Below, one piece after another: positions 1-516 of a stretch of 516 nucleotides of DNA. The notes beneath the pieces were generated by a model. It saw only the letters and a list, made by a program, of their open reading frames with translations, searched no databases and was not told the DNA's origin. The first letter of the stretch is position 1; each line of letters opens with the position of its first letter. The stretch lies in the NCBI RefSeq assembly GCF_003334815.1, contig NZ_QOWO01000129.1; one strand, given 5' to 3'. This DNA comes from Escherichia coli (GTDB lineage Bacteria > Pseudomonadota > Gammaproteobacteria > Enterobacterales > Enterobacteriaceae). A program made the position numbers and the translations under genes.

Positions 1-113
1 TATGCAAGATTTGCCTGAACAGCACGATTCTGCATGATGTCGATTTGTGCGATTGCGTCCTTCTGCTGATCACCGGTTGGCTGATAAGTGGTGTTAAAAG
101 AAAATGCGCTCAT
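1..113 (-). CDS. N-terminal ~37 codons of a protein-coding gene (hypothetical protein); gene continues leftward beyond position 1
   Basis: ATG at 113..111 on the minus strand, preceded by AGGAGG (118..123) with a 4-nt spacer. An in-frame stop lies upstream at 149..147, so this ATG is the first start in the frame, and the frame stays open to position 1. Translation: MSAFSFNTTYQPTGDQQKDAIAQIDIMQNRAVQANLA. I do not recognise the family. The plus-strand frame 3 is also open over 3..131 but gives a Cys-rich peptide with no start, so the minus strand is favoured. The gene is absent from the supplied ORF track, presumably because it is edge-truncated. Confidence 0.55.
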   Translation of the reverse strand, partial: MSAFSFNTTYQPTGDQQKDAIAQIDIMQNRAVQANLA

Positions 114-123: not shown

Positions 124-143
124 GTGTTTAATGTTTTCAGCCC

Positions 144-158
144 CCATCACCCGTTGAG
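144..158. repeat. Direct repeat copy 1: CCATCACCCGTTGAG
   Basis: Matches 220..235 (CCATCACCCGTTTGAG) apart from one extra T. The copies start 76 bp apart, in the region upstream of the minus-strand gene. Confidence 0.8.
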
Positions 159-172
159 TTTCGGGAGCCGCG

Positions 173-188
173 GTTTTGACGTTTTGCG
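173..188. repeat. Tandem octamer GTTTTGAC-GTTTTGCG
   Basis: Two adjacent 8-mers differing at one position. The second copy starts the TTTTGCGG motif that recurs at 327..334, as a variant at 503..511 and inverted at 293..300. TTGACG (176..181) resembles a -35 hexamer, but I found no convincing -10 at 16-18 bp spacing. Confidence 0.55.
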
Positions 189-219
189 GGGACCTGCCGT
201 TTGTTCCCTCCGGTATTAA

Positions 220-235
220 CCATCACCCGTTTGAG
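220..235. repeat. Direct repeat copy 2: CCATCACCCGTTTGAG
   Basis: 15/16 identity with 144..158, with a single T insertion. Candidate paired protein-binding sites; function not established. Confidence 0.8.
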
Positions 236-292
236 AACCTTCGCCGCAAGGGGCATCACTGCCACGACCGGAAACGACTGTCCGGGGGCAGA

Positions 293-334
293 CCGCAAAA
301 GTTTTTGCCTGCTTTTGGGCAAAAAGTTTTGCGG
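293..334. repeat. 42-nt imperfect palindrome / hairpin-capable inverted repeat
   Basis: Arms 293..311 and 316..334 pair as 293-300 with 327-334 (8 bp), one G/G mismatch at 301/326, 302-309 with 318-325 (8 bp), and two G-U wobbles at 310/317 and 311/316, around a CTTT loop (312..315). That is 16 Watson-Crick pairs. No U-tract follows on either strand, so it does not look like an intrinsic terminator; an operator-type dyad or RNA hairpin is more likely. Confidence 0.85.
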
Positions 335-339
335 GATGT
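327..339. repeat. Direct repeat TTTTGCGGGATGT (left copy; partner at 503..516)
   Basis: Near-identical to TTTTGCCGGGATGC at 503..516 with one extra C. The two copies flank the GC-rich domain. The core CGGGATGT (332..339) is also the reverse complement of ACATCCCG (489..496). Confidence 0.75.
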
Positions 340-489
340 ACATTTCACCCCTGGACTGGCGGAGACGGTTGTGGCTGTCTGTGCCCCCGGCGACAGGGAC
401 TCATACGGGTGTGTGGCACCGGACACAACAACGGGCAGGGACCCGCCGCAACGACGAAGAGCGCGTGCGCGAAACGGCGTTGCCCCTCA

Positions 490-515
490 CATCCCGGCGG
501 CCTTTTGCCGGGATG
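490..515. other. GC-rich stem-loop (9-bp stem, 8-nt loop); function undetermined
   Basis: 490-498 (CATCCCGGC) pairs perfectly with 507-515 (GCCGGGATG), with 7 of 9 pairs G-C, around loop GGCCTTTT. The window ends at 516, so a plus-strand U-tract cannot be checked. There is no U-tract on the minus-strand side (the reverse complement of 480..489 is TGAGGGGCAA). Confidence 0.7.
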
Positions 516-516
516 C
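503..516. repeat. Direct repeat TTTTGCCGGGATGC (right copy; partner at 327..339)
   Basis: See 327..339. This copy also forms the 3' arm of the 490..515 stem-loop. Confidence 0.75.

Follow-up and report, generated by a model that had tools for sequence, protein, structure and literature searches.

The DNA analysed here, called the window, is a 516-nt stretch of Escherichia coli contig NZ_QOWO01000129.1 (assembly GCF_003334815.1). Its left end holds the 5' part of a gene for a 98-aa protein. The element to the right of this gene aligned base for base, over window positions 140-490, with ssiD of the F plasmid (D90178, taken from supplementary file 4 of Samuel 2024). The features are collected in Table 1. 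Among E. coli plasmids, 10,564 places matched the window, with a median of three per genome. The surroundings were read from NZ_CP074882, which is 98.6% identical to the window, with all seven differences located left of position 131. The order there is traM, the oriT region, an SLT transglycosylase gene, a DUF932 gene, the 98-aa gene, the element, hok, psiA, psiB, a parB-like gene, and ssb. Every leading gene in NZ_CP074882 is on the minus strand, and the arrangement in F is alike. Transfer begins at oriT, with the leading region the first to enter; the window's plus strand is therefore the transferred strand (T-strand) and the template for the leading genes.

Table 1. Features of the 516-nt window, in window coordinates
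Feature	Position	Strand	Remarks
98-aa leading-region gene, 5' part	1..113	-	ATG 113-111; GGAGG ribosome-binding site 122-118; annotated CDS WP_021558926.1
Homologue of F plasmid ssiD/Frpo (Frpo1, alias ssp1a), class 1 ssDNA promoter	140..490	+ (= transferred T-strand)	alignment
Long imperfect single-strand hairpin, ~320 nt	158..475	+	apical loop 310-317; DNA fold
Frame-2 ORF, often called "hypothetical protein" or "YubN"	176..516	+	TTG 176; runs off the window; judged spurious
TTGACG, candidate -35-like hexamer (5/6)	176..181	+	5' arm, paired with 452-457
TATTAA, candidate	214..219	+	mostly unpaired; 215-220 unpaired in the fold
TTGAGA (231-236), 17 nt, CATCAC (254-259), candidate sigma-70-like pair	231..259	+	5' arm
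Stop-free stretch, all three frames	235..516	+	by-product of composition and of the alleles of the present variant
A/T-rich apical helix, CCGCAAAAGTTTTTGCC + 8-nt loop + GGCAAAAAGTTTTGCGG	293..334	+	inverted repeat I2
TACATT (339-344) and TGGACT (352-357), alternative candidate -10 and -35	339..357	+	3' arm
Small perfect hairpin, 9-bp stem, 8-nt loop	490..515	+	inverted repeat I9; on the T-strand, 3' of the main hairpin

The 98-aa protein begins MSAFSFNTTYQPTGDQQKDAIAQ..., and the full gene lies at L001 5817-6113 on the minus strand. Searches of the protein against Pfam, NCBIfam, PHROG, and PADLOC gave nothing significant. YgeA of F is encoded at the same position; identity of the 98-aa gene with it was rejected, as the two had no detectable similarity. 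The first cassette after the promoter therefore differs among F-like plasmids. The 98-aa gene is uncharacterised and is probably expressed early.

Over a 630-base block (window-equivalent 130-760), the sequence was 93% identical to Frpo1 of F, also known as ssiD or ssp1a (Masai and Arai 1997, as described in papers that cite it; Couturier 2023, PMC9849209). Like F Frpo1, the element is on the T-strand, has a long imperfect hairpin, and lies between hok/flm and the oriT-proximal genes. Frpo2 of F (ssp1b) is a paralogous repeat upstream of ssb-yfjA-yfjB-psiB-psiA. It was 88.6% identical to the same block over 570 aligned bases and had the same fold and orientation. It differed in its inner-stem alleles, in two 1-nt indels that put its reading frame out of step with that of the window, and in carrying TGA at 270 and TAA at 320.

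Three features of the class 1 Frpo/ssi elements were thus present: sequence homology to F ssiD/Frpo, a leading-region position next to oriT on the T-strand and upstream of genes templated by that strand, and a long imperfect stem-loop in the T-strand. The element itself is already known, being a member of an experimentally characterised family. Window 140-490 is very probably the known non-coding Frpo-type single-strand promoter of F-like conjugative plasmids, with the stop-free run and the frame-2 ORF as its side effects. Three differences from the F prototype were observed. The window is a mosaic of Frpo1 and Frpo2 alleles, it accidentally lacks plus-strand stops (from 235 to 696 with its right flank included), and the first gene, which the element would drive, is the 98-aa gene instead of ygeA.

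The DNA fold of plus-strand positions 130-516 gave -113.1 kcal/mol (z = -8.0 against shuffles), with pairing from G158-C475 through C309-G318. A structure alignment was made with 13 distinct homologues, comprising paralogous copies from five plasmids and published Serratia and insect-metagenome sequences. Their consensus contained 78 pairs, in which 96.9% of the cells were paired, whereas only 37-49% were paired when the partners were slid by 1-3 columns. Compensatory changes were found at nine consensus pairs, compared with 2-3 in the slid controls; the homologues behind this covariation are related paralogues, and the shuffle statistics overstate their independence. In all 13 homologues, the plus strand was more stable than its complement by 7-18 kcal/mol, as expected where G-T wobbles are tolerated on the strand that folds. 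The genuine strand asymmetry of this DNA resides in folding, not in stop codons.

The initial annotation had read the scarcity of plus-strand stops as a hint that any element or transcript here is plus-oriented. The part about the element stood, though not for the reason given, with the plus strand being the T-strand that folds into the hairpin (13/13 homologues). The part about the transcript did not: the RNA would be minus-sense, and the plus strand its template. The stop asymmetry itself is no evidence of orientation and was absent from every other copy examined.

Within the hairpin, the 17-nt arms of the apical helix (inverted repeat I2) show 94% complementarity. By eye in the alignment, Frpo2-type copies keep this helix, with G307-C320 changed to A-T and the G301/G326 mismatch changed to T-A. 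The helix may be a UP-like element. It is deleted in the insect-metagenome homologues and so is possibly dispensable. The small hairpin at 490-515 also appeared in the folds. As judged by eye in the alignment, paired changes preserve its stem in the insect-metagenome homologues, and the stem that ColIb-P9 has at this place is a different one. A second large structure was sought by folding the flank 479-760, and small hairpins alone were found (z = -2.1).

Another source considered for such an inverted repeat was an element functioning as RNA, either a structured RNA gene or a long 5' leader, in place of a DNA hairpin. The repeat would also fold in a minus-sense transcript, the minus strand having z = -7.2, and a leader would include the hairpin if transcription starts in the 3' arm. 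However, the G-T wobble pattern favoured the plus DNA strand in 13/13 homologues, and the plus strand is the template, not the RNA-sense strand. Published genetics places the function in the single-stranded DNA form. A search of Rfam at a permissive E-value found no RNA family: its four hits were all microRNA precursor models, matched as generic hairpins, and the best scored 20.5 bits against a threshold of 197. A function at the RNA level is barely conceivable on this evidence, and the DNA hairpin is the preferred reading.

A script confirmed that the plus strand has no TAA, TAG, or TGA in 235-516 and that its final stop is TGA 232-234. Each minus-strand frame has a stop within 340-516, as had been noted: 345-347 in frame 2, 401-403 in frame 3, and 487-489 in frame 1. 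Frame 1 has another at 256-258. The minus-strand stop at 401 (TCA on the plus strand) is the hairpin partner of TGA 232-234, which bounds the run. Those at 256 and 345 are at or beside unpaired positions, and that at 487 is outside the hairpin. In NZ_CP074882, the openness of all three plus-strand frames extended to 696, giving a run of 462 nt. The initial annotation had proposed extending the sequence rightward, with stops in all plus frames just beyond 516 as the sign of non-coding DNA. No such stops followed, and this sign would have misled.

Dinucleotide-preserving shuffles of 235-516 contained 5.0 stops on average, and the probability of none was 0.0014; for the 462-nt run, it was 0.00075. 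A plus-strand run of at least 282 nt anywhere in the window had P = 0.0005-0.003, and such a run on either strand had P = 0.013-0.036. All of these shuffle P values are nominal, being uncorrected for the number of features a reader could select. Although real and nominally unusual, the stop-free run was not conserved: in the part aligned to 235-516, each of the 20 other copies examined had 1-8 plus-strand stops. The experimentally active F Frpo1 and F Frpo2 had four each, so a complete lack of stops is unnecessary for function.

The lack of stops could mean that stop trinucleotides, or the T-purine motifs within them, are selected against on the transferred strand for a reason other than translation, such as avoidance of a nuclease or restriction target or of a sequence disturbing SSB or RNA polymerase on single-stranded DNA. 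Most of the 20 other copies had fewer plus-strand than minus-strand stops in 235-516 (typically 3-6 vs 8-9), with the counts equal or reversed in four of the 20. TA was scarce in the run, occurring twice and both times within TAC, and none of the 21 TG dinucleotides was followed by A, against about 4.1 expected. Yet the TA scarcity was strand-symmetric, which leaves TGA alone as the residual signal (P ~0.01). The active F elements tolerate their four stops each, and the window merely combines stop-free alleles that are each found elsewhere. Selection of this kind is very unlikely. The absence of plus-strand stops is an accident of one variant.

How the accident arose can be seen in the alleles. 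Stops recurred among the copies at about seven polymorphic sites (270, 320, 402, 410, 432, 457, and 676). At every one of them, the window has the alternative, stop-free allele, and the same alleles exist in other copies. The alignment further revealed a mosaic of Frpo1-type and Frpo2-type blocks in the window, a pattern that recombination among dispersed repeats would be expected to give. Three causes would together account for the long frame-2 ORF and the run without stops: a composition of about 63% GC that is poor in T and nearly TA-free; nucleotide conservation imposed by the hairpin; and, in this mosaic copy, stop-free alleles at all of the roughly seven sites that have a stop in its relatives. 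Such an account, chance plus composition, is an after-the-fact one for a run that is nominally improbable (P ~0.001, plus strand).

The mosaic was also visible in the stem. At 224-240 with 395-411, a Frpo1-like inner left arm is joined to a Frpo2-like right arm, CTCATACGGGTGTGTGG. The left-arm allele CACCCG of the window restores full pairing with this Frpo2-like right arm. Mixed Frpo1 and Frpo2 types were also seen at the alleles 270, 320, 402, 410, 432, and 457. The mixing of alleles and the pairing-restoring allele suggest gene conversion among dispersed repeats, followed by compensatory selection.

The long plus-strand ORF was examined as a gene. In NZ_CP074882, frame 2 is open from 158 to 770 (204 open codons in the present variant), giving a 199-aa ORF from the TTG at 176, whose product reads MTFCGDLPFVPSGINHHPFENLRRKGHH.... 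If real, it would be a "YubN"-like gene of about 199 aa overprinted on the hairpin and expressed after the plasmid has become double-stranded. Its start signals are present: besides the TTG, GGAG at 361-364 stands six nucleotides ahead of GTG at 371-373, as first reported. In many plasmids, gene-calling programs place a protein here. Public data contained 839 predicted products at E <= 0.001, including one with the name YubN, and some clusters had more than 500 members. PHROG gave weak matches, only to families of unknown function.

The reading frame, however, was not preserved. Of 14 local copies, 10 had a broken ORF, and both copies in F were among these. Several database products switched frame over the same DNA: in internal segments, P0037 corresponds to reference frame 3, and P0050 and P0080 correspond to frame 1. 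The variable columns fell at codon positions 1, 2, and 3 in numbers of 33, 36, and 24 (p = 0.30), so the third-position periodicity that the initial annotation had proposed as a check gave no excess. Among the indels in the aligned copies, 46 of 64 were 1 nt long. Pfam had no domain on any of the 120 listed homologues of the ORF, NCBIfam had no match, and in the PGAP annotation the locus is a pseudogene with a frameshift. Eight Arg codons were read downstream of GTG 371, and seven of them were of types that E. coli uses rarely (AGG, AGA, CGA, or CGG). A literature search on "yubN" returned nothing relevant.

With its frame not preserved, no third-position excess, mostly 1-nt indels, and no curated family, the "YubN"-like gene was rejected. 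This alternative is largely refuted already, and we hold it to be extremely improbable. The earlier doubt about a real gene was well placed: the Arg-rich, rare-codon peptide is not a conserved protein. The plus-strand ORF is a by-product of non-coding DNA that is strongly conserved, rich in GC, and poor in T. There is an equally slim chance that the intact frame-2 ORFs (~199-268 aa, in a minority of plasmids) are translated once the DNA is double-stranded. They would then be a young overprinted gene inside a ssDNA promoter, and their openness would reflect recent selection.

PGAP also called a 68-aa ORF on the minus strand, WP_032342234.1 (MYIPQNFLPKSRQK...), at window positions 137-343, wholly inside the hairpin. 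In the Frpo2-type sequence of the reporter construct, this frame ends after 12 codons. It is probably another spurious call.

Candidate promoter boxes were sought in the plus strand. A strict consensus scan for promoters and terminators found no promoter and one terminator-like site, which was at chance level. A relaxed hexamer scan gave TTGAGA-17-CATCAC, TGGGCA-17-TACATT, and GGGACC-19-TATTAA, which are weak and mutually exclusive candidates. The first of them was one of two top linear sigma-70-like candidates, tied at 8/12. Its TTGAGA was invariant in the aligned homologues. In the minimum-energy fold, C257 of CATCAC and the neighbouring T260 were unpaired and the rest was paired; in the 13-sequence consensus, the CATCA stretch was unpaired.

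The other candidates had features of their own. TTGAC of the -35-like hexamer TTGACG was invariant across 13/13 aligned F-type, Serratia, and insect homologues and was paired in the minimum-energy fold. No matching -10 was found 17 nt from TTGACG, and the motif was absent from the ColIb-P9 sequences used. In the 3' arm, positions 339-347 were unpaired in the fold, and 348-356 paired with 280-288. TGGAC was common to most copies, including ColIb-P9 and Serratia (as TGGACA/G/T), and was TAGAC in one insect copy.

Box placement was tried by homologue conservation, by pairing state, by the extent of the Frpo2 fragment in the reporter construct of Samuel 2024 (window-equivalent ~114-399), and by the relaxed hexamer scan. 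By these four approaches, no -35/-10 assignment was consistent over the F-type, ColIb-P9, Serratia, and insect homologues. Because polymerase would head leftward into the gene with either arm as the non-template strand, the start site may be in the 5' or the 3' arm.

The shared repeat at the Frpo1 and Frpo2 positions was about 610-630 nt long, some 270 nt beyond the published 351-nt ssiD. The extra part is on the 3' side of the T-strand, at L001 6490-6760, equal to window coordinates 490-760, with 490-516 inside the window. It is GC-rich and has several small conserved hairpins, for example the one at 490-515 and another with GCGACCGGAACGGTCGC, and a purine-rich tail at its end. As a whole, it folds weakly. 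Upstream of each promoter, the extra part might serve as an insulator or a terminator. In the alignment, the tail varied by copy through short tandem expansions, with, for example, (CAGTAG)n in other copies and (GAAGAG/GAA)n in F Frpo2. The variable sites were at ~7997-8060 in L002 (F), at ~12120-12175 in L001, and at the equivalent places in L003 and L004 (window coordinates ~700-760).

Some F-like plasmids had three or four class 1 copies per leading region, compared with two in F. Four were found in L005 (18352-18983, 19999-20582, 25556-26187, and 28873-29501) and three in L003, and the search table contained one Klebsiella plasmid with up to eight matching places. The additional copies sit upstream of further small genes without assigned function.

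Single-stranded DNA hairpins that act as promoters have other forms. Filamentous-phage minus-strand origins and the sso of rolling-circle plasmids are ssDNA hairpins that mimic promoters, with which the host RNA polymerase makes a primer. Unlike Frpo-type elements, they make a short primer and are not known to drive mRNA of downstream genes or to be related in sequence. Among conjugative plasmids, related elements outside the F type are ssi1-3 of ColIb-P9 (IncI1; Bates 1999, as described in citing papers). They share the inner hairpin core TGTCCGGGGG...GCAAAA(G/T)TTTTT...AAAAA(G/T)TTTTG...CCCCTGGAC...CCCCCGG and, within the leading region, precede the ssb, psiB, and ardA operons. They differ in the outer stem, in the lack of a TTGACG block in the sequences used, and in having 1-3 plus-strand stops. 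In ssp2, a T-strand hairpin likewise reconstitutes a promoter for zygotic induction, but it has no sequence similarity to the window and is additionally a replication roadblock (bioRxiv 10.64898/2026.01.09.698686).

The function of the family is published. The single-stranded form folds as a stem-loop that recruits RNA polymerase, and transconjugants need Frpo1 and Frpo2 to express the downstream leading genes early (PMC9849209). Start sites of class 1 ssDNA promoters were confirmed by 5' RACE (PMC12672017), and class 1 transcripts prime complementary-strand synthesis in vivo (bioRxiv 10.64898/2026.01.09.698686). Leading-gene transcription from the single strand is published for both F and ColIb-P9. 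Experiments with these two plasmids indicated SSB-stimulated RNA polymerase binding, activity confined to the single-stranded form, and inactivation on conversion to duplex.

With homology, genomic position, strand, and a conserved strand-biased hairpin observed for the present variant, its promoter activity is predicted by analogy. Polymerase recruitment, priming, and switch-off are carried over from the published F and ColIb-P9 experiments or are our own extension of them. During conjugation, the plus strand would enter the recipient single-stranded and snap back into the ~320-nt hairpin, the stem of which would mimic a double-stranded sigma-70 promoter. Host RNA polymerase would bind this stem with the plus strand as template. 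The RNA would hence be minus-sense and run leftward into the 98-aa gene, whose start is at 113. Complementary-strand synthesis could also be primed by the RNA-DNA hybrid. That synthesis would destroy the hairpin and turn the promoter off.

For annotation, this locus is a case in which a GC-rich conserved hairpin yields long ORFs on the sense that is not transcribed. These ORFs are widely mis-annotated, with hundreds of entries, one YubN, and a PGAP pseudogene. The initial annotation had named protein homologues as a guide; the 839 ORF calls would have been taken as such, yet the region is non-coding. A test that extends the ORF and seeks homologues would wrongly confirm a gene here. For the plasmids, the importance of Frpo-type hairpins is already established: within minutes of entry, and before the second strand is made, they allow conjugative resistance plasmids to express genes for SOS inhibition, anti-restriction, and other establishment functions.
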